The notes below the pieces were generated by a model. The model worked only from the letters and a program-made list of their open reading frames with translations. It searched no databases and was not told where the DNA came from. Positions 13,895 to 23,378 of a DNA stretch of 64,000 nt are shown here, one piece after another; the stretch's first letter is position 1, and each line of letters begins with the position of its first letter. Made by a program: the position numbers and the translations under genes. The DNA lies in contig JAZJZE010000009.1 in the NCBI GenBank assembly GCA_040390065.1, positions 250,830 through 314,829 of the forward strand, written 5' to 3'. Origin of the DNA: a bacterium (lineage in GTDB: Archaea > Thermoplasmatota > E2 > JACPAO01 > JAHFTW01).

Positions 13895-14899
13895 ATGGAC
13901 ACCAAGACCCTCGAAGCCACCGCGCAGGCGCTGGTCGCCGGCACGAAGGGCATCCTCGCGGCCGACGAGTCGACGGCGACGATCGGCAAGCGCTTCCAGG
14001 CCATCGGCACCGAGTCGACGGAGTCGAGCCGCCGCGACTACCGCCACCTCCTCTTCACGACGCCGGGTGCGGGGGATTCGGTAAGCGGCGCCATCCTCTA
14101 CGACGAGACGTTGCGGCAGAAGGCGTCGGACGGGACGCCCATTGTCAGCGTGCTGGCCAAGGCCGGCATCATCCCCGGCATCAAGGTCGACACGGGCGCA
14201 TACGACCTGCCCAACTTCCCGGGCGAGAAGATCACGGAAGGGCTCGACGGGCTGCGCGGGCGCCTAGCGGAGTACCACAAGATCGGGGCGCGCTTTACCA
14301 AGTGGCGCGCCGTCATCACGATTGGCGACGGCATCCCGACCGGGTACTGCATCAAGGCCAACGCGCAGGCCCTCGCACGCTACGCAGCCTTGGCGCAGGA
14401 AGCCGGACTGGTCCCCATCGTCGAGCCCGAAGTCCTCATGGACGCGGACAACACGGTCGAGCGCTGCGAAGAGGTGACGGCCGAAGCGTGGCGCGTCACG
14501 TTCAACGCCTTGCGCAAGGCCCGCGTGCACCTGCCCGGAATGCTCCTCAAGCCGAACATGGTGATTGCTGGCAAGAAGTGCCCGGTGCAGGCGCCTGCCC
14601 AAGTCGTGGCGGAGCGCACCGTCACGCTGCTGCGCGCCCATGTCCCCCCCGCCGTGCCGGGCATCGTCTTCCTGTCTGGTGGCCAGTCGCCCGAGCAGGC
14701 AACGGAACACCTGCGTCTCATGAACCGCCTTGGTCCGCACCCGTGGAAACTGTCGTTCAGCTACGGCCGCGCCCTGCAGGACCCGGCCTTGAAGGCGTGG
14801 GGCGGCAAGCCGGCAAACGTCAAAGCTGCGCAGGACGCGTTTGCCAAGGTCGCAAGGGCGAATGCGGCGGCGTGCGCGGGAAAGACCCTCGTGGCGTAG
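13895..14899 (+). CDS. fba: fructose-bisphosphate aldolase class I (eukaryote/bacterial Glycolytic family)
   Basis: KGILAADES, PGIKVDTG, KWRAVI, VPIVEPEV, Schiff-base lysine LLKPNMV, FLSGGQS, FSYGRALQ. Confidence 0.95.
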   Translation: MDTKTLEATAQALVAGTKGILAADESTATIGKRFQAIGTESTESSRRDYRHLLFTTPGAGDSVSGAILYDETLRQKASDGTPIVSVLAKAGIIPGIKVDTGAYDLPNFPGEKITEGLDGLRGRLAEYHKIGARFTKWRAVITIGDGIPTGYCIKANAQALARYAALAQEAGLVPIVEPEVLMDADNTVERCEEVTAEAWRVTFNALRKARVHLPGMLLKPNMVIAGKKCPVQAPAQVVAERTVTLLRAHVPPAVPGIVFLSGGQSPEQATEHLRLMNRLGPHPWKLSFSYGRALQDPALKAWGGKPANVKAAQDAFAKVARANAAACAGKTLVA

Positions 14900-14970
14900 G
14901 CCGCCGTCCTGCCTCGCAGACGTCGACCGGCCACGCCAGGCTCCGACCGCGGCGACGCGCACGAGGTGGC

Positions 14971-15312
14971 CGCGTGGCTGAGTGTGGGAAACCTGGGAGA
15001 ACAGGAATCTCGTGAAGAGAACGGGAATGGGTTCCTGTTCTCCGTTCGTCTCCGGTTCTCCCAGGCCGCCCGTGCCTGAAAGGCCAGGAAACCGTGGAAA
15101 ATGGGTGAAACGCGTTTCCGGTTTTCGGCGATTTCCTGAGCTTCCAGGCCCCCGGCGGCCCCAGCCATCGCTGCGCTCGGCTCGCCTCGCCCTCGCTCTG
15201 CGCGCTTCGCGGCGCATTCGCTCGCCCCGACCGGGGGCTGCTTCGTGTCCCTTCCATTCCTTCATGACGTCGCCGCCGTCGGAGGAACGCGGGAATGGTT
15301 CGTTGACCTGGA
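14971..15312 (+). repeat. 342-bp inverted repeat, left copy
   Basis: Reverse complement of 19923-20264. Ends checked by eye (CGCGTGGCTGAGTGTGGG...CGTTGACCTGGA); identical translations in the ORF track. Confidence 0.95.
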
Positions 15313-15326
15313 CAAGCAGGTTTTCC

Positions 15327-16307
15327 CTACGGCTGGGGCGAGCTTGCCGCGACGAGGTCTGGCATCTTCGTCCGTCCGCACAGCCACGCGTACAGTGCGT
15401 CTTCGCGGTAGCCGAACGGCGAGAGAAGGGTCTCGACGTTGCGCGCGAGGAGCCGGACGTAGGCGTCGATGGAGTACGTCTCGCGCGGCGAGCCGAACCA
15501 TGGCGATTGCTTGCCGAGGAGTTCCACGGGTTTGACCCGCGCATCCCAAGGGCCCGTCTGGCGCGACACGACGTACTTGACGTATTCGCCGGGCTTGCGT
15601 TCGGTGCCGGCGTCGCGCAGGAGTCTGAGGGCCGCCTTGGTGCCCGTGTTGGCGCTGTAGTCCTCGACGCTCATGCGGGCTTGCAGCATGAGGCCCAGGT
15701 CCTCGGGGTCGACTTCGCGTCGGCGCAGGCGTCCGGCGGCCTCCTTCGCGACGGCAAGGGCGCGTGGGATGCGCAGCAGGAAACCTTTGGCGTCATCCGC
15801 TTCGGCAAAGACGTCCAGCATGCCCTGCTGCACGTCGTACAGAAACGGCGGCGTGCTGTGGCGTTGCACCTCGATGCCGCGCACTTTGAGGGTGCCGTCC
15901 TCGAACTTGCCGTAGTAGCGGTTGGGCACGCCGACTTCGCTTGAGGTGCTGTGGGTCTTCGACGGCAACAGGACGAGCCAGCGGTAGACGCCTTCCACGT
16001 CCATGGGGACGCCGACTTCCTTGGAGACGAGGTGCGACACGTGCACGGCGTCGGCGCGCGTGATGCCGGGCTTGTGCAGGAAGACGCAGTCCGTGAGCGC
16101 GTGCACCATCGTGTAGCCTTCGCGCTGCGCCACTTCGCGGGCGCGCGTCATGCCCGCTCGTCCCAAGCATTGGATGGCCTGGTGCACCTCGGCGCAGCCG
16201 AAGCGGGCGTTGCGGTAGCGGAAGTAGCCGAAGCAGACGACGCCGAGGGCTTTGTGCTCGGATTTGATCGCTTTGGCCTTGGCGACGAGGTTGGAGGCGC
16301 TCGTCAT
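15327..16307 (-). CDS. polB2: DNA polymerase family B, PolB2 group, C-terminal half
   Basis: Motif B K..GVVCFGYFRYRNARFG, degenerate motif C HALTDC, VPNRYYG, LKVRGIEVQRHSTP, GEYVKYVV. Confidence 0.9.
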   Translation of the reverse strand: MTSASNLVAKAKAIKSEHKALGVVCFGYFRYRNARFGCAEVHQAIQCLGRAGMTRAREVAQREGYTMVHALTDCVFLHKPGITRADAVHVSHLVSKEVGVPMDVEGVYRWLVLLPSKTHSTSSEVGVPNRYYGKFEDGTLKVRGIEVQRHSTPPFLYDVQQGMLDVFAEADDAKGFLLRIPRALAVAKEAAGRLRRREVDPEDLGLMLQARMSVEDYSANTGTKAALRLLRDAGTERKPGEYVKYVVSRQTGPWDARVKPVELLGKQSPWFGSPRETYSIDAYVRLLARNVETLLSPFGYREDALYAWLCGRTKMPDLVAASSPQP

Positions 16308-16561
16308 CGGTACACCATCGAGCGGTGGCCGAAACGGAAGAACACAATTTCGTTTTCCTGGACGGCGTACATGCCGCGATAACGGCCGACATGGACGCGA
16401 TATGCTCCTCCATGCATCTTCATGACGTCGAGGCCTGGTCGAGGACGAAACGGGTTTTCCTGGAGCATCGTGAAGGCCTTCTTGAAATGCCGCTGGACAG
16501 GGTCGGGCAGGTCATCCAACTCCAGGAGGGCCGACGGGGCGATCGTGACAACAAACGGCAT
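16304..16561 (-). CDS. RelE/ParE family toxin
   Basis: 85 aa; LDDLPDPVQRHF..LQENPF, YRVHVGRYR..Y, GHRSMVY. Confidence 0.85.
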   Translation of the reverse strand: MPFVVTIAPSALLELDDLPDPVQRHFKKAFTMLQENPFRPRPGLDVMKMHGGAYRVHVGRYRGMYAVQENEIVFFRFGHRSMVYR

Positions 16562-16562
16562 C

Positions 16563-16787
16563 CTATACGAACTTCCCTTTCTTGCTGTCCCACGTCAAGC
16601 GCGGGCGTTCCTTCATGCGGCGGTCCATCTCCTTCCAGAACGCCTCCGTCGGGGTCTCGTCCATGAATGCGTTGAGCACGTCGTCGTACGTCTTGCCACC
16701 TACTTTGTACGACCTGAGGCGCCGGAGGGTCTCAGGCTTGACGGGGACGGAAGTGAAAGTGGTCGTGCGCAGGGGGGCCTTGGCCAT
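16563..16787 (-). CDS. putative antitoxin (RHH-like N-terminus)
   Basis: 74 aa directly upstream of the toxin; TSVPVKPETLRRLRSYK..GKTYDDVL. Confidence 0.75.
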   Translation of the reverse strand: MAKAPLRTTTFTSVPVKPETLRRLRSYKVGGKTYDDVLNAFMDETPTEAFWKEMDRRMKERPRLTWDSKKGKFV

Positions 16788-16820
16788 GACAATCATTACA
16801 GTCATGACAATCATGAACGT
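16785..16820. promoter_or_regulatory. candidate TA operator: 4 x 9-bp tandem repeat
   Basis: CATGACAAT CATTACAGT CATGACAAT CATGAACGT overlapping the antitoxin start; contains TCATGA palindromes. Confidence 0.55.
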
Positions 16821-16908
16821 TGCGGCAGCGGATTCATTTCACTGTCCCGGCCCAAACCATTGTCTACGCCAAGTCCATCGCATGCTGCCGCCCAGGCGGA
16901 AGTGAACC

Positions 16909-17325
16909 ATGGCCACCCAGACCAAGCAGACCCAGAAGCCCGCAGCCTCAATGACCTCGCGCAAGGTGCGTCCCGGTTTCATCTCGCACACCGAGCTCGC
17001 CAGCAAGGACCCTGCCGCCACGAAGGCGTGGTGCCAGAACGTCCTCGGGTGGCAGTTCGGCGCCCCCGTCGCGACTCCCAACGGCGACTACCACATGTGG
17101 CAGTTCGACGAGGCCAACGGCGGCGGCATCCGCAACACCAACGCGGGCGAACCCGGCGGCACCGTCCCCTACGCCGAGGTCACCGACATCAAGGCCGCCT
17201 ACGCCAAGGCCAAGAAGGCTGGCGCCACCGAGATGATGCCGCCCAGCGAAGTGCCCGGCGGCGGCTGGATCGCCATCGTGCAAGCCCCGGGTTCCGTCCC
17301 GATCGGGTTCTGGGCGCCGAAGTGA
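16909..17325 (+). CDS. VOC/glyoxalase family protein
   Basis: ISHTELASKDPAATKAW..VLGW, GGGI, PYAEVTDI, EVPGGGWIAIVQAPG. Confidence 0.88.
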   Translation: MATQTKQTQKPAASMTSRKVRPGFISHTELASKDPAATKAWCQNVLGWQFGAPVATPNGDYHMWQFDEANGGGIRNTNAGEPGGTVPYAEVTDIKAAYAKAKKAGATEMMPPSEVPGGGWIAIVQAPGSVPIGFWAPK

Positions 17326-17329
17326 AGCG

Positions 17330-17713
17330 CTAGCGCACGAACCACGCCGCAACCGATTCCGCGGCGAAGAGGGCGATGCCGATGCCGGTCCCGATGGCGG
17401 AGCCGTTTGGGCCCGTCGACAGGCTTTGCCACAGCGCGATGAGTGTGGCGGCCATGATGCCAGAGGCAAGAGACGCAATGCCCAGGCCCACGGCCGTATC
17501 GGCCCCCACTCGCCACGCGCCGTAGAGCATCACGGCGCCGCAGCCGACGGGCAAGAACCCGATGGCCAGCAGTCGGGCAAGGCGGGCATCGAAGCCGCCG
17601 CGTTCGCCGAAAGCAACCATCGTCACGGCGATCCAGTGGCCGACGCCCGAGAGGAGGGCCACGGCACCGAGGAGGAAAGCGGCAGTCGTTGCAATCCCCT
17701 GTGGGGTTGCCAC
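17330..17713 (-). CDS. small 4-TM membrane protein
   Basis: Four hydrophobic segments; fills the gap between the VOC gene and polB2-N. Confidence 0.6.
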   Translation of the reverse strand: MATPQGIATTAAFLLGAVALLSGVGHWIAVTMVAFGERGGFDARLARLLAIGFLPVGCGAVMLYGAWRVGADTAVGLGIASLASGIMAATLIALWQSLSTGPNGSAIGTGIGIALFAAESVAAWFVR

Positions 17714-17747
17714 GCCGTGGCATCGGGCAAGCGGACTTGGAGTTTCG

Positions 17748-19112
17748 CTATCCCGGGGCCTTCGCCTTCTTGAGCACGGCCTTCGCCCAGCGCCGGTGGC
17801 CCCACAAGCGACGCAGGATCTCTGACTGGTGTCCCTGCTCCTTGCAGACGTGGTAGCCGAGTTCCGGGATGACTTCGCCGTCGGGGCAGCACGTGCAATT
17901 CAGGGTATCGGACGAGAGGTTGTGGCGCACGACCAGGCTCGGGTAGTAGCCTGAGAAATCGCATGCCGCGACGTCCTCGTACAGGCCGGGTTCCGGCACC
18001 ATGATCTGGCCGCCGCGGTCGACGGCGCAGAGTGTGGCTGCGTCCTTCCAGTCTTCGGCCAGGTTGCGTTTCCACGGCAAGGCGACACCGCGGTCGGTGG
18101 CGAGGTCGATCTGCATCTGCTGCAGGGCGAAGCCGGCGCCGTTACGGTTGACATCCTGGGCTCTGCGGTTGGCCACACGTGCGAGGTACACGATGCCATG
18201 CAGGTCCTTGCGGTCGTCTTCGGAGTCGAGCGTCTTCTTGGCGAGGTCGATGTGCCAGCGGCCGCGCAAGTAGAAGGCGTGCGTCTTGAACAGCCAGCGG
18301 CCGTACGTGTGGATGCTCTTGCTGGCCTGGTCGGGCTTGTCGGGCAACGGGTCGGCGTCACGGCCCAGGCGCACCTCACCCTCGATGCCCAGGGCCTTGA
18401 TGCGGCTGAGGAGGAACGGAATGTCGAAGCGGTCGCCATGGCGCGTCACGATGACATCAGGGTCCAGAAGCGCAAGGGACGATGCAAAGGCGCGAAGCGT
18501 GTCGCGCTCTGCGGCTGCATCGCCAGGCGCCGCGCACGGCAGGACCTCGTCGCCGAGGCGGATGGACTCGAGCGGGTCCGTGAAGGCGGGCACGTAGCCG
18601 TCCTTGCGCGCGGTGACCTCGAGGCGTACAGTGCGCAGGTCGGGATCGGGGTATTCGACGGTCCAGCGGTCTTCCCCCGGTGCCGGGCGCAGTTCGATGC
18701 CCGAGGCCGAGGTTGCAAGGCGGCACATGGACCACAATCCCTGCGCATGCATCCAGCGCGACTCCTGGCCGTGGTCGACGTCGAAGAACAGGAAGCCCTT
18801 CGTGTGCGTGCGGCGCCGCAGGTCCGTCGCGATGGCCCACGTATCCTGCAGGCGCTTGGGTCGCACGCGAAGCACCTCGGTCTCGGGTCCGCGCAGCCAC
18901 AGCCGTTGCCGGGACCTCCAAGTCTTGTCGACGCGGCCGTCCTGCGCTAGCAGTTTTTCCGCAAGCGACAGCGGCTGTGTCTCGGCCTTGACGCAGAAAT
19001 CCGGGAAGTAGGGCACGAGCCGCTTCGTGACGGCATCGCCGTGCTTGACCCAGACGACGAGGCAGGACTTGCGCGGATGGGGGTAGACGTCGAAGAGCCA
19101 GGCGTCATCCAT
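17748..19112 (-). CDS. polB2: DNA polymerase family B, PolB2 group, N-terminal half
   Basis: WLFDVYP, DPDVIVTRHGDRFDIPFL, GRWHID, DRGGQIMVPEPGLYEDVAACDFSGYYPSLVVRHNLSSDTLNCTCC; ends after the first fingers helix. Confidence 0.9.
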   Translation of the reverse strand: MDDAWLFDVYPHPRKSCLVVWVKHGDAVTKRLVPYFPDFCVKAETQPLSLAEKLLAQDGRVDKTWRSRQRLWLRGPETEVLRVRPKRLQDTWAIATDLRRRTHTKGFLFFDVDHGQESRWMHAQGLWSMCRLATSASGIELRPAPGEDRWTVEYPDPDLRTVRLEVTARKDGYVPAFTDPLESIRLGDEVLPCAAPGDAAAERDTLRAFASSLALLDPDVIVTRHGDRFDIPFLLSRIKALGIEGEVRLGRDADPLPDKPDQASKSIHTYGRWLFKTHAFYLRGRWHIDLAKKTLDSEDDRKDLHGIVYLARVANRRAQDVNRNGAGFALQQMQIDLATDRGVALPWKRNLAEDWKDAATLCAVDRGGQIMVPEPGLYEDVAACDFSGYYPSLVVRHNLSSDTLNCTCCPDGEVIPELGYHVCKEQGHQSEILRRLWGHRRWAKAVLKKAKAPG

Positions 19113-19134
19113 GCCGACGCACCCCTGGACGAAC

Positions 19135-19170
19135 CACTGAACGCACTGAACGCACTGAAATCACTGAACC
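19135..19170. repeat. 4 x 9-bp tandem repeat upstream of polB2-N
   Basis: CACTGAACG CACTGAACG CACTGAAAT CACTGAACC. Confidence 0.85.
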
Positions 19171-19416
19171 CCGCAACCCGTCTGCGAAGCCCTGCTTCGC
19201 CAAGTCCTCGAAAGGTCCTCAGGTTGCGACGACGGCTTCCTCCACGCGGACCTCAAGATGGGCCTGGAAAACCAGGAAATCGAAGAAAACAAGGAAGGCC
19301 GCCGGTCGGGGCGAGCACGCCGTCGGCGCAGCCGCGGCGAGGCGAGGGCGTGGCAAGCGCGCGATGCGGAGCAAGCGCGCGAGGGCCGCCGGCGGCAGCG
19401 GAAAGCCACAGCAGCT

Positions 19417-19785
19417 TCACGCTTCCACGAGGACCGTCTGCCCGATGCGGCCCAACTCGTAGGCATCGGGTGCCTTGACGCGGCTCTCGACGAGGCCTGC
19501 GCCACGCAGCGCGGTCAGCGCCGCTTCGAGGTCGCGCCGCAGAAGGGCGAGTTCGCGGTTCTGGCCGTCCACCATCCGCATGCCCTCCAGTAGCATGGCC
19601 AGCATGACGGGGCGTTCGAAGTCGAGGTGCGGGCGCCGGTTGATGGCGTTGGAGTGGCGGCGGGCGCGGCAGACGAGTTCGTCGAACCACTCCTGCTCGC
19701 GCGGGTGCAGTTCGGCGCGAAACTGGGCGTAGCGAGAAAGGAAGATGTCCAGCGCGATTGTCGTGGTCGGGGTGGATTGTCCCAT
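19417..19785 (-). CDS. PolB2-associated small helical protein (arCOG07300-like)
   Basis: MGQSTPT...FRAELHPREQEWFDELV..ARRH...FERPVMLAMLLE followed by a coiled coil; upstream of polB2. Confidence 0.75.
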   Translation of the reverse strand: MGQSTPTTTIALDIFLSRYAQFRAELHPREQEWFDELVCRARRHSNAINRRPHLDFERPVMLAMLLEGMRMVDGQNRELALLRRDLEAALTALRGAGLVESRVKAPDAYELGRIGQTVLVEA

Positions 19786-19922
19786 GGGATTCGCTTGTAG
19801 TGGGCACAGGTTCTTCTGTTGCTTTATGGGGTGAGTGAAAACGGCACGGCGAAATAACTGGGTGAAGCGAACGTACCATCTGACGGGCCACGGACTGCAT
19901 CGATTGCACGACAACCTGCATC

Positions 19923-20264
19923 TCCAGGTCAACGAACCATTCCCGCGTTCCTCCGACGGCGGCGACGTCATGAAGGAATGGAAGGGACACGAAGCAGCCC
20001 CCGGTCGGGGCGAGCGAATGCGCCGCGAAGCGCGCAGAGCGAGGGCGAGGCGAGCCGAGCGCAGCGATGGCTGGGGCCGCCGGGGGCCTGGAAGCTCAGG
20101 AAATCGCCGAAAACCGGAAACGCGTTTCACCCATTTTCCACGGTTTCCTGGCCTTTCAGGCACGGGCGGCCTGGGAGAACCGGAGACGAACGGAGAACAG
20201 GAACCCATTCCCGTTCTCTTCACGAGATTCCTGTTCTCCCAGGTTTCCCACACTCAGCCACGCG
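19923..20264 (-). repeat. 342-bp inverted repeat, right copy
   Basis: Reverse complement of 14971-15312. Confidence 0.95.
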
Positions 20265-20299
20265 AACCTACTTGCCGAAAAGGGCGGCCACGCCGCCAG

Positions 20300-21025
20300 T
20301 CATCCGAGTTTGGCCTGCTGCGGCTTCTTGGCACTGGCCTCACCCCAAACCTTGGCTCCGCCTTGCGGTTTCACGGCCTCGGGATCCCCGCGCCGCTTCC
20401 ACACGTCCTCGGCGATGGGCACCATCTCGTACGCGTCGTTGGCCGCCGGAACGAGGAGGTTCTGCAAGGCCTCCTTCCCCGTTGCCGCCGGATCCATCCA
20501 AGCGTCTTGCCGGACCCGCGAATCCAATTCCACCACGAAGCGGTCGTGGACCTGCGCCACGAAGTCGTTGGCCGGCGCCGTCACTTGCACGTGGCCGAGG
20601 TCGTCGTACTCGTTGCCCGTACTGGTGAAGGCGTAGTGACGGCGGGCCATGAGGGCTGCAACGACCATCAGCTTGCCATCGCGGCGTTGGATGCGGAAGG
20701 CGGCCTTGGTCTTCGCGTCGCGCTCGACGACGTAGGAGATTGCGGCGAGCGCGTGGTGCTCCGGCTTGCCGAAGAGACCGCGCCACGCCGGGGATACGAG
20801 GTTGTCTCCTCGCGCATTCGTCAGCAGGCGTGGGCCGACCGGCATCCCGAGGCGCACCTTGTCCACGACGCGCTCGCCACCCTCGAGGCGGGCCACCGGC
20901 AGGAAGTCGGCGTGGTGCACGAGCGGCCGCGCGATGCGGTCGCCGGCGTCGTAGACGTAGCGCGTGCCGCCGAGGGCGTCGATGACCTCCATCGAGCTTG
21001 CATCGATGCCTTCGAGTCCGGCCAT
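20300..21025 (-). CDS. SRAP/HMCES-family protein, paralogue 2 (divergent)
   Basis: LTNARGDN, YVVE, VTAPANDFVAQVHDR, DAWMDP; N-terminus MAGLEG. Confidence 0.75.
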   Translation of the reverse strand: MAGLEGIDASSMEVIDALGGTRYVYDAGDRIARPLVHHADFLPVARLEGGERVVDKVRLGMPVGPRLLTNARGDNLVSPAWRGLFGKPEHHALAAISYVVERDAKTKAAFRIQRRDGKLMVVAALMARRHYAFTSTGNEYDDLGHVQVTAPANDFVAQVHDRFVVELDSRVRQDAWMDPAATGKEALQNLLVPAANDAYEMVPIAEDVWKRRGDPEAVKPQGGAKVWGEASAKKPQQAKLG

Positions 21026-21033
21026 GCCACATC

Positions 21034-21747
21034 TCAGAACCAGGTTGCCGGCTTCTTCGCCGCCGCCTTGCGGGGTGTTGCGCCGTAGCGCATCGCTTCG
21101 CCGATCGGAACCAAGTCGGCGTCCTCGCGGATGCCTGGCTTGAAGATGCGGTCGTCCACGGGGACGGCTTCCCATTCGTCCTCCGCCGGATGGTGCAGGA
21201 TCGCCGCGGCCTCCTTCTTTTCCGTCGCGGCCATCCATGCGTCGGCCTCCTTGGGCGACAGCGTGCAGACCTGGCGGTCGTGGAACTGGCCGAAGAACTT
21301 GTTCGGCGCCGTCGTCACGATGGCGCAGCACAACCTGCCTTCGCCCTCGTCCATCTTGCGGGGTGCGCAGAGGCCCGGCATGACGATTGGTCGGCCGTCG
21401 ATGCGGCGGAACCACAGGCTCGTCTTCTTGCCGTCGATGGTGGCTTGCTCGTAGATGCCCGTGGCGGCAACCAGGCACGGTGACTTTGCGAGCATCGAAC
21501 CCCACATCGGGCTCTCCAGCAAGCGGTCGTCCCGAGCGTTGCCGACGGGCCGGCCGCCGCCGACGGGGAAGCCCCAGCGCGCACGCACGGCCACACGTTC
21601 CCGGTCCTTGTTGACGGCGATGGGCAGGGTCGTCGTGAGGCGGACGACGGGGTGCGGAACCCAGTCGCCCTCGTAGTCCCACTTGGAGACGCGCAGGGCG
21701 TCCTGGATGTCGATGTCGGCGGCTTGCAGTCCGATGAGGCCGGCCAC
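21034..21747 (-). CDS. SRAP/HMCES-family protein, paralogue 1
   Basis: ARWGF, NARDD, CLVAATGIYE, CAIVTTAPN..FHDRQ, DAWM. Start GTG 21747 gives MAGLIG. Confidence 0.85.
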   Translation of the reverse strand: MAGLIGLQAADIDIQDALRVSKWDYEGDWVPHPVVRLTTTLPIAVNKDRERVAVRARWGFPVGGGRPVGNARDDRLLESPMWGSMLAKSPCLVAATGIYEQATIDGKKTSLWFRRIDGRPIVMPGLCAPRKMDEGEGRLCCAIVTTAPNKFFGQFHDRQVCTLSPKEADAWMAATEKKEAAAILHHPAEDEWEAVPVDDRIFKPGIREDADLVPIGEAMRYGATPRKAAAKKPATWF

Positions 21748-21773
21748 GGCGTGCGACACGGTGGCGCGGCTGT

Positions 21774-23378
21774 CTACTTTGCGGCCTTGCGCAGGAGCGG
21801 CCGTTCCACGCCGATTGCGTAGGTCTTGTAGCGACCTTGGAAACGCACGGCGATGATGCCCTCGTTCTGCAAACGGGCCAAGCGGTGCTGCGTCGTGCTG
21901 CGCGACCAGCCGCACGTCTCCATGGCGTTGAGGACATCCTTCTGCGGGGCGCCCGGGTGGGCCTCGATCCAGGAGCGCAGGTTCGCCAACTCAGGATCGC
22001 GCAGCACGGCGGTATGGCGCCACGTTTCGGTGTAGCGGCCGTGGTTCTCGAAGAAACGCATGCGCGAATGGTGTTGGTACTCGATGACGAGCCCGGCGCG
22101 CTTCAGGACGTTGAGGTGGTGCCGCGTCGTGCCCGTCGGGATGCGTACACTTCGGCAGACCTCGCGGAAGCTGGCACCGGGGTGCTCGCAGATGAAGGCG
22201 TGCAGGCTGGCGCGGCGCGGATGGGCAAGCGGGTCCTGCGGCGCGGTGAGAAGCGGCGCCAGGAAACGCAACAGGACCAGGAGCGCCGCAAGGCCGAGGA
22301 CGGCCTCACCAGTGACCGCGATGCCGGACACGAGGGTCGCCGGTGCCGGGCTTTCGTCGAGTCGCGCGTCCTGAAGCTCACCGCCGAATCCGGCAGCCGC
22401 CGAACGAGGGCCGGTCGAATGCAGCCCGCCCAGGATGACGTGGCCCGAGGCAAGCAGCGTCTGGTTGTGGGGCCCATCGCACTGCGCGCAAGAGGACGCC
22501 GAGGCAAGGGGCAGACGGACCCAGCCATCGACCTCGACATCGAAGGCCGGCCCGCCGGCCAGCGCGAAGTCGAGGGCCCCTTGCGCAGTGAGGTTGCCGC
22601 CATTCGTCCGGAACTCCTGGTGCGACAGATGGTCGACCGTCACCTCGCTGCCTGCAAGGGAGGGCGCAGCGATGCGGGTGCGGCCGCCCGGCGGCGGGCA
22701 TGGTCTTTGGGTGCACTCGGTGGACGCGTTGAACCATTCGAGTTGCCGCACGCCGGTGGCGTTGAGGGTGAACATTTCGCCACGCCCGTTTGCCCAGACG
22801 AGGTACGTTTCGTTGTCCGGGACGTCCGGAACGCGCACCGCCAAAGGCTCGTCGATGACGGTTGGCAGGAGCGGACCGATGCCTTCGTTGGAGTTGGCGA
22901 TGGCGGCCCGTCCCGTGGTCCTGAAGTCGATGCGGTCGGCCACGAGGACGAGGGAGGAGGAACCAGGGCGGCGGAAGTCGAGGGACAGGTCGTTCCATGG
23001 CGCCGGATCTTGGCGCGGTGCGTCCTGGCCTGGCCCCATCCAGCCGCCTCCCAGTGTGCCGTTGCGCATCGCTCGGACGTTCTGCATGGTGTGGTTGACG
23101 AGGGTGCCCCCGCCGAGGTTCTCGGCCCGAAGTGTGACGGCATCCGGACCGTCGGCCATGAACCAGAGGATCAGTCGCGTCACGGCGGTCGCGTTCTCGT
23201 GCCCCCCGGCGGCGGCAGGGATCGCAAACGAGACTCTGGGCTGGTCCGCGTCCGTTGCGACGGCGGTGGGGGGGAGCACGGCGGCAAGGACGATGGCGAT
23301 GCTGGCCGCGACCTGCAACCGCAACCGTAGGCGTGGGGCTGCGTGGCCGGAGTTGGAAGCGAATCTGTTGGTCTGCAT
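21774..23378 (-). CDS. membrane-anchored double winged-helix regulator with large extracellular N-terminal domain
   Basis: Signal peptide, a TM segment, then PLAHPRRASLHAFICEHPGASFREV and a second HTH WIEAHPGAPQKDV..STTQHRLARL. Confidence 0.8.
   Translation of the reverse strand: MQTNRFASNSGHAAPRLRLRLQVAASIAIVLAAVLPPTAVATDADQPRVSFAIPAAAGGHENATAVTRLILWFMADGPDAVTLRAENLGGGTLVNHTMQNVRAMRNGTLGGGWMGPGQDAPRQDPAPWNDLSLDFRRPGSSSLVLVADRIDFRTTGRAAIANSNEGIGPLLPTVIDEPLAVRVPDVPDNETYLVWANGRGEMFTLNATGVRQLEWFNASTECTQRPCPPPGGRTRIAAPSLAGSEVTVDHLSHQEFRTNGGNLTAQGALDFALAGGPAFDVEVDGWVRLPLASASSCAQCDGPHNQTLLASGHVILGGLHSTGPRSAAAGFGGELQDARLDESPAPATLVSGIAVTGEAVLGLAALLVLLRFLAPLLTAPQDPLAHPRRASLHAFICEHPGASFREVCRSVRIPTGTTRHHLNVLKRAGLVIEYQHHSRMRFFENHGRYTETWRHTAVLRDPELANLRSWIEAHPGAPQKDVLNAMETCGWSRSTTQHRLARLQNEGIIAVRFQGRYKTYAIGVERPLLRKAAK

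Follow-up and report, generated by a model that had tools for sequence, protein, structure and literature searches.

The stretch of DNA analysed here, a window of 64,000 nucleotides (nt) in the metagenome-assembled genome (MAG) of an uncultured archaeon of the Thermoplasmatota (assembly GCA_040390065.1; contig JAZJZE010000009.1, termed C9; window C9:250830-314829), carries an operon for a split B-family DNA polymerase of the PolB2 type, which lies between the arms of a long and nearly perfect inverted repeat. The arms belong to a dispersed family of hairpin repeats in the same genome. On balance, and with some reservation, we favour the reading that two old copies of this family were made identical by gene conversion and that the segment between them was then inverted through the repeats. 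The MAG (G000) comprises 2.68 Mb in 50 contigs, with 67% GC and an estimated completeness of 89%. A previous reading of the window from its letters (the sequence-only reading) had noted the repeat and put forward several explanations, which are weighed below.

A repeat search of the window delimits two arms of 355 nt each that are 99% complementary and have 4584 nt between them (Table 1). The arms had been described as reverse complements over 14971-15312 and 19923-20264, and reading both of them bears this out: 342 bases are perfect, and the alignment of arm against arm (355 nt at 99.155% identity) adds an inner 13 nt with three mismatches. A perfect match of 342 nt cannot be due to chance, and in a self-comparison of the whole MAG the arm pair is its longest near-identical repeat. 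Genes were called with a codon-usage caller trained on the MAG, checked by a third-position GC plot and scanned against Pfam and NCBIfam. By this caller the left arm is non-coding, a long open reading frame (ORF) across it has no Pfam match, and the arm stops 2 nt short of the stop codon of polB_C, the gene for the C-terminal half of the polymerase. Both hairpins that the sequence-only reading had pointed out are present in the arm, one formed by pairing of CCTGGGAGAAC (14992-15002) with GTTCTCCCAGG (15057-15067) and the other by CAGGAAA and TTTCCTG around 15085-15137. A further hairpin module adjoins the left arm on its outer side and is missing beside the right arm, whose outer flank reads ...CAAGTAGGTT. 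Folding of the arm had also been suggested; as single-stranded DNA, the arm with its outer module beats shuffled sequences (z = -2.5). No direct target-site duplication was found when both outer flanks were read, in agreement with the earlier statement that no flush duplication is present.

A search of the whole MAG with the arm, likewise proposed before, identifies it as a high-copy dispersed repeat, with 51-52 matches at ~40 loci and 68-86% identity to the arm; this is one half of the outcome that the sequence-only reading had named as its own refutation. The copies are intergenic (1 of 52 matches overlaps a called ORF, which is probably spurious), are found in all gene contexts and point in either direction. 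Each is a mosaic of modules, drawn from two hairpin modules, a GC-rich middle and a 3' part. In hairpin module A (29 copies) 96% of cells are paired, with no compensatory pairs, and in hairpin module B (13 copies) 91% are paired and four pairs show compensatory changes; a module of the type seen at 14928-14970 precedes 14 of 25 family 5' ends. With its many short, non-coding, intergenic copies and conserved hairpins, the arm family is an intergenic repeat similar to repetitive extragenic palindromes (REPs) and miniature inverted-repeat transposable elements (MITEs). By general knowledge of REPs, bacterial interspersed mosaic elements (BIMEs) and MITEs, it resembles these in being short, non-coding, intergenic and multi-copy, in occurring in both orientations, and in being a mosaic of paired hairpins. 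It differs from them in that the repeat unit has no clear terminal inverted repeats (TIRs) and no clear target duplications, with only recurrent CAAGCAGGTT-like motifs at its borders, and in that no partner transposase was found: neither a Y1 transposase nor TnpB was matched in the 89%-complete MAG. A further difference is its confinement, as an abundant repeat, to this species and its closest relative. Within the genus, G000 has 58 matches and G004, the closest relative by fba (84% identity), has 40, all of the 3' half only; G010 has two, G012 one and nine other genomes none. Apart from two tRNAs, nothing in the window reached the gathering score of an Rfam family, and in E-value mode over the arm the sole match was a chance-level microRNA (E 0.59). 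The modular hairpin repeat family is new.

Among these diverged copies, the arm pair is an outlier. Its 99.2% identity compares with 92% for the next best and a median of 79% in 505 copy-pair comparisons, the other pairs ranging from 68 to 92%, and of the pairs less than 12 kb apart (n = 20, 12 of them inverted) none except the arm pair exceeds 88%. On both sides, recognisable family sequence also extends further than the perfect tract. Inward, the last 13 nt of each arm represent a separate variant of the family 3' consensus, and the two variants are ~77% alike, which is the usual divergence of the family; outward, the left arm runs into a further family module, and the outer flank of the right arm resembles a different type of family junction. 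In G004, an old family copy follows fba (the contig ends inside this copy), and another lies upstream of acc122, the accessory gene that heads the operon, followed by the conserved 111-nt region listed in Table 1. The diverged homology beyond the perfect tract, together with copies at both sites in G004, speaks for homogenisation of two old copies and against insertion of a new one. We therefore follow the sequence-only reading in one of its suggestions, ongoing homogenisation, which fits these same two lines of evidence. As to mechanism, the favoured interpretation of the aligned copies is that the arm identity would be a footprint of gene conversion.

The course of events may be pictured as follows. 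The arms are inward-pointing copies of one unit, one located after fba and the other upstream of the first gene of the PolB2 operon, and both sites would have held family copies before homogenisation. Recent copying between the sites, most likely by intrachromosomal gene conversion in recombinational repair, would have removed all differences over 342 nt without reaching the diverged ends of the family copies. A pair of identical inverted repeats at a distance of 4.6 kb is a substrate for homologous recombination, and a crossover between them would flip the segment that they enclose. The assembled orientation would then be the flipped state relative to all relatives, and the flip would be a passive by-product of the repeats, not an activity encoded by an element. 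Whichever way it lies, the operon carries its own promoter.

The flip is suggested by synteny with 20 distinct loci of relatives that hold polB_C. In 16 of these the closest SRAP gene is encoded downstream of polB_C and convergent with it, on the opposite strand; of the other four, two are cut off by a contig end before any SRAP gene, and two have different neighbours. At none of the 20 is SRAP upstream and co-directional, the arrangement of the window as assembled, where acc122 is preceded by SRAP_b and SRAP_a. If precisely the segment between the repeats is turned round, polB_C comes to lie beside SRAP_a in the conserved order, and in G004 the SRAP_a orthologue is the neighbour of polB_C. 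The operon is thus apparently inverted relative to its relatives; short-read graphs do not fix its orientation, and the inverted form probably exists in cells. Of the invertible switch proposed earlier, an inversion is suggested, as the assembled order is the reverse of that at 16 of 20 loci of relatives, and the programmed connection and disconnection of the polymerase is not supported, for reasons given below.

Other comparisons with relatives bear on the history of the locus. No inverted repeat of at least 45 nt was found at any of eight relatives' loci. The junction of polB_C and SRAP_a offers no nucleotide-level reconstruction against G004, in that the C-terminal tails diverge and the genes overlap. 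Furthermore, G004 has fba on one contig and the PolB2 module on another, and its DNA beyond the SRAP genes matches C9:424-434 kb of G000; these differences in context imply that the locus was rearranged at family copies more than once. For an empty-site check, G007, a member of the genus with no PolB2 match, has different downstream neighbours of fba, and no adjacency of fba and SRAP was present among the relatives examined (G007 and G004).

The inverted repeat is real, and contigs that a different assembler produced from what is probably the same sample give it partly independent support. Run X1 is the probable source sample and holds 99% of the sampled words of the stretch, next to nothing of which is present in runs X2 and X3. 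One Logan contig of X1 ends at 15000, one spans 15283-19952 and one starts at 20235, and at all four junctions the contigs stop 30 nt (k-1) into the arm; therefore, both flanks abut the outer arm end, and the middle piece abuts the inner ends. The arm piece 15208-15312 has a depth of 22, compared with 12.2-14.7 in the flanks, which matches the expectation for two copies. An artefactual arm copy was considered and rejected on the strength of the four contig junctions and the doubled depth. A joint of opposite strands at 14300/19335 in X1 is no inversion junction, as it proved to be a match of 38 nt with a fragment of a short repeat. When metagenome contigs were scanned for exact matches to the left outer junction, 0 were found, and the same strain is evidently absent from the scanned collection.

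Several observations weigh against conversion followed by inversion. The perfect tract ends exactly at 10-nt CAAGCAGGTT-like motifs on both sides, which unit-wise copying predicts and gene conversion does not. In addition, positions 15313-15322 match the reverse complement of 20265-20274 apart from a single mismatch among the 10 bases, at the positions expected of an inverted target duplication. Starting conversion between copies only ~75-80% alike is inefficient, and no other neighbouring pair shows conversion. In G004 the copy upstream of acc122 is the 3' half of the unit only, so that import of the 5' hairpin modules by conversion would need homology at the outer end, or microhomology. The other exact arm piece in X1 (20059-20182) has a depth of only 11.1, a single-copy value, and short-read assembly can merge near-identical copies; for both reasons the full identity of the arms over the hairpin part is not independently proven. 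Lastly, since the perfect inverted repeat is longer than k, both orientations of the middle segment fit the assembly graph, and the contigs cannot choose between them.

This last point is the basis for the alternative that survives best, in which the arms are real and there was no inversion. The true order would be fba, arm, acc122, PolB2, arm and convergent SRAP, and the middle segment would have been assembled in the wrong orientation or in one of two that co-exist. A perfect inverted repeat that exceeds k leaves the assembly graph symmetric, the Logan contigs break at all four junctions and do not order the middle piece, and the order found in relatives requires one event fewer. Nevertheless, the contig of the MAG passes through both arms, yet the same assembly breaks at several ~275-nt repeats at contig ends. 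This suggests that read pairs or long reads may support the assembled path. We therefore regard the absence of an inversion as quite possible and, on the whole, unlikely.

Another type of event would explain identity and inversion in one step. In a replicative inversion, the 342-nt unit upstream of acc122, which then adjoined fba, would have been copied between the stop codons of polB_C and SRAP_a by an intramolecular process like replicative transposition, which creates the second, inverted copy and flips the segment together. A single event from an ancestor like the relatives would give the identity, the geometry (both 3' ends inward) and the flipped synteny, and would account for the inverted 10-nt match noted above and for the coincidence of the perfect tract with a unit bounded by CAAGCAGGTT-like motifs. 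On the other hand, no Y1 transposase or TnpB was matched in the MAG at its 89% completeness, no transposase domain is found in window genes from 362 to 47169, and no other young copy of the unit exists, the next best pair being 92% identical. The 10-mer of the left arm equals the family 3' consensus and is more simply part of an old copy; moreover, a target duplication as recent as 2 x 342 unchanged nt imply should be perfect, yet it has one mismatch. A replicative inversion is thus doubtful.

Less probable again is an invertible cassette driven by recombination, in which the arms would be kept identical, the operon would flip between a state convergent with the SRAP and helix-turn-helix (HTH) genes and one of co-directional read-through, and the finger tip of the polymerase would tolerate or attract cargo. 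If it were true, the cassette would produce subpopulations with different expression of a mutagenic polymerase.

A programmed switch, with a site-specific recombinase that flips the operon and so couples or uncouples PolB2 from transcription of the SRAP and HTH genes, has very little in its favour. Perfect inverted repeats do bracket a functional unit, and as assembled the PolB2 operon shares its direction with the HTH gene and the two SRAP genes. Against this, no recombinase is encoded inside the segment or within about 15-25 kb of it, and the six tyrosine recombinases of the MAG are on C2, C4, C5 and C11, not on C9; recombinase and transposase domains are likewise absent from the window genes from 362 to 47169. 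The arms consist of 342 nt of a generic dispersed repeat instead of short specific sites, and none of the eight relatives' loci has the inverted repeat. The conserved region upstream of acc122 moves with the operon, and since this promoter region (78% conserved) is within the flipped segment, the suggestion that the flip would connect or disconnect the polymerase is not supported.

The remaining proposal, a mobile polymerase-carrying element with TIRs (casposon- or polinton-like, or a composite transposon), recalls in outline the self-synthesising transposons of general knowledge in having a B-family polymerase between terminal inverted repeats, and can be practically dismissed: it has no Cas1, integrase or transposase inside and no direct target duplication outside the arms, its arms are of the host's own repeat family, its polymerase is a chromosomal one of PolB2 type with motif C LTD and conserved synteny, the arrangement of acc122, PolB2 and SRAP recurs without repeats in relatives of several families, and no close relative was found in viral contigs, as judged by a scan with the N-terminal half that detects close relatives only. 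The sequence-only reading had already seen no transposase, integrase or Cas1 inside, and Pfam scans of the ORFs between the arms, with which NCBIfam agrees, find none; the same is true of the surrounding 15-25 kb or so. Its suggestion of a non-autonomous composite or polymerase-carrying element does not survive, given that the same operon stands beside SRAP in relatives without the repeat, that the arms are of a host family and that mobility genes are lacking. A composite transposon was also rejected on the ground that the arms hold no gene by codon-usage calling, and hence no insertion sequences (IS) that encode a transposase.

Conversion between two old copies with repeat-driven inversion, the reading favoured here, has well-known counterparts. 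Inversions by homologous recombination occur between inverted dispersed repeats (IS, MITE or rRNA copies) and as inversion isomers of replicons with large inverted repeats. Like these, the present case has identical inverted copies of a dispersed repeat that bracket a segment of differing orientation, no dedicated recombinase is needed, and concerted evolution of the two arms is expected. It differs from them in that the arms are only 342 nt long and come from an old, diverged, non-coding family with no other homogenised pair, and in that the inversion is deduced from contigs. The phenomenon is of a known kind, a pair of dispersed repeats in concerted evolution together with an inversion; the novelty lies in the repeat family and in the locus that it affects. 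If the flip is real, it would be a clean natural example of short dispersed repeats reshaping a locus for DNA-damage tolerance in an uncultured archaeon, with one repeat pair in concerted evolution among ~40 diverged copies. For annotation the case carries two warnings, namely that long inverted repeats around a polymerase gene do not by themselves make a self-synthesising transposon, and that the orientation of repeat-bounded segments in short-read MAGs is not reliable.

Table 1. Features of the repeat-bounded segment and its surroundings, in window coordinates.
Feature	Position	Strand	Basis and remarks
fba	13895-14899	+	Outside the left arm
Extra 5' family module	14928-14970	+	Hairpin CGGCCAC...GTGGCCG; beside the left arm, outside the inverted repeat; from the family alignment
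Left arm	14971-15325	+	Perfect to 15312; 15313-15325 is a diverged family 3' end (CAAGCAGGTT...)
polB_C, C-terminal half of PolB2	15327-16307	-	Pfam DNA_pol_B; residues ~487-755 of a PDB PolB; aligned to an unsplit relative
ParE-family toxin	16304-16561	-	Pfam PF05016, E 1.1e-9; stop codon overlaps the polB_C start codon
Putative antitoxin	16563-16796	-	No Pfam family; 84% identical to its positional counterpart in G004
Glyoxalase/bleomycin-resistance (VOC) gene	16909-17325	+	Pfam PF00903, E 1.3e-5; strong third-position GC signal
127-aa ORF	17330-17713	-	No family match
polB_N, N-terminal half of PolB2	17748-19112	-	Pfam; PDB PolB to ~residue 474; aligned to an unsplit relative
Spacer between acc122 and polB_N	19113-19416	-	304 nt of repeat fragments
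acc122, accessory gene	19417-19785	-	Conserved three-helix protein upstream of polB
Upstream (promoter) region of acc122	19766-19876	-	78% identity over 111 nt with G004; inside the flipped segment
Right arm	19910-20264	-	Perfect over 19923-20264; inner 13 nt are another variant of the family 3' end (GATGCAGGTT)
SRAP_a, SRAP paralogue a	20300-21025	-	Pfam SRAP; G004 orthologue 70% identical, convergent with polB_C
SRAP_b, SRAP paralogue b	21034-21759	-	Pfam SRAP, E 9e-28
514-aa HTH protein	21774-23318	-	C-terminal ArsR/MarR-type winged helix; Pfam and NCBIfam

Some by-products may be of more interest to specialists than the repeat itself, namely the naturally and recurrently split PolB2 with cargo at its finger tip, the neighbouring SRAP arrays that appear to be without the canonical N-terminal Cys, and the new hairpin family. 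The repeat had been said to bracket exactly the accessory gene, the two polB2 halves and a toxin-antitoxin (TA) pair. All of these are indeed enclosed, and so are the glyoxalase-family gene and the 127-aa ORF, so that the word "exactly" has to be given up. The polymerase is split at the finger tip by the insert of ParE, antitoxin and glyoxalase genes, the last of which is on the opposite strand to the operon.

The N-terminal half contains the N-terminal and exonuclease-like domains, motif A (DFSGYYPS) and the first finger helix, and ends in the finger-tip loop. The C-terminal half resumes with the second finger helix (motif B-like KALGVVCFGYFRY) and comprises the thumb and a palm whose motif C reads LTD. 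Aligned to a solved archaeal PolB, the halves extend to ~474 and from ~487, which puts the break at the finger tip, and the polymerase of an unsplit relative aligns continuously over it. Motif C is LTD in this relative as well, so that the first Asp of DxD is substituted in both. Loss of this residue is a hallmark of PolB2 (PMC11791011). In the Exo II region Asn is changed to His and the Asp is kept; the D-V-D of Exo I was read by eye only.

The split recurs among relatives. Apart from the window, finger-tip splits occur in the relatives L010, L012, L015, L016, L019, L024, L033, L039, L040 and L041, and the open frames measure 457-515 aa in eight relatives versus 730-947 aa in others. A maximum-likelihood tree of 21 N-halves requires at least six changes between split and unsplit forms even when only well-supported branches are counted, and the break is always in the same finger-tip loop. 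The inserts are 0.35-2.5 kb long and carry TA pairs or genes for glyoxalase, haemolysin-III-like (HlyIII), Zn-ribbon, pirin, DsbA and Kelch proteins; mobility genes were found in none of these inserts. An engineered Pfu polymerase split near the finger tip is reported to incorporate nucleotides, and the split, along with the mutation Q484R, is credited with better incorporation of a modified nucleotide, from which activity follows (PMC3061061). The window polymerase resembles this construct in being a B-family enzyme divided near the tip of the fingers; it differs from it in that its split is natural, has 0.35-2.5 kb of cargo between the halves and recurs across lineages. By analogy with the engineered enzyme, the simplest reading of the recurrent split is that the finger tip may be a permissive insertion site.

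Two side observations concern the history of the insert. In the TA pairs between the PolB2 halves (window 16304-16796 in G000 and L040 12731-13222 in G004), the antitoxins are 84% identical, compared with 73-78% for the polymerase and only 53% for ParE, and in the tree the N-half of G004 groups with the unsplit gene of G010. The antitoxin identity, set against this tree position, suggests that there may have been cassette exchange or re-fusion.

The accessory gene acc122 was found upstream of polB at 16 further loci, with 44-79% identity. Its AlphaFold2 model is all-helical, with three helices and an N-terminal arm (mean confidence, pLDDT, 82.5), and an atlas search gave a lead to DUF8156 at 0.90. 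The fold search returned weak, tied helical matches with Z of at most 5.4, which include N-domains of sigma factors (1h3l, Z 4.2). A small three-helix partner, PPB2, has been described for PolB2, and SRAP genes are reported as enriched near polB2 (PMC11791011). On the strength of its predicted fold and position, acc122 is probably a PPB2-like partner of PolB2. The locus is similar to the archaeal translesion "mutasome" operon PPB2-PolB2-iRadA in that its B-family polymerase is without the first Asp of DxD, the gene just upstream specifies a small protein predicted to have three helices, and SRAP adjoins. It departs from the operon as described there (PMC11791011) in having no iRadA, a polymerase split with unrelated genes between the halves, and arrays of two to four SRAP paralogues. 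No iRadA or RadA-like gene is present at the locus, and Rad51 family matches in the MAG are on contigs C1 and C4 only.

The junction of acc122 and polB_N is a second site of insertion, seen in the window and in L010, L011, L012, L016, L019, L022, L040 and L042. In most relatives the two genes overlap by ~75 nt, and in L022, G025 and G029 the end of acc122 carries a duplicate of the ~25 codons with which polB_N begins. In the window the spacer at this junction contains a third copy of the arm family (~19293-19396) and a short repeat of TTCAGTG type (~19120-19169).

Beside PolB2, arrays of two to four SRAP paralogues occur in the window and in L013, L017, L018, L022, L040 and L043. The paralogues of the window begin with MAGLEG... 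and VSHAVAGLIG...; canonical SRAP starts with M-C-G, and these proteins (M-A-G and V-S-H-A-V-A-G) appear to be without the nucleophilic N-terminal Cys. The 514-aa winged-helix protein encoded next to them is a candidate regulator. Proteins of ~500 aa with ArsR/MarR-type winged helices recur in PolB2 neighbourhoods with 32-38% identity (L010 463-1308, L012 5180-6334 and L041 5389-6384), and in L010 and L012 the winged-helix gene is located between acc122 and polB_N.

Other repeats were noted in the MAG. The TTCAGTG-type short tandem motif is dispersed over at least 10 loci, often adjoining the arm family, and these include window 19120-19169, C9:217775-217807, C9:562801-562832 and C1:19553-19592. 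Two more repeat families, with units of ~275 nt, are each represented by 5-7 copies at 93-99.6% identity, many of them at contig ends (C9:24859-25136, C9:36522-36795, C9:213169-213441, C9:559124-559398, C1:365067-365343, C4:72750-73028, C11:172047-172322 and several contig ends), and look like recently active MITE-like elements.

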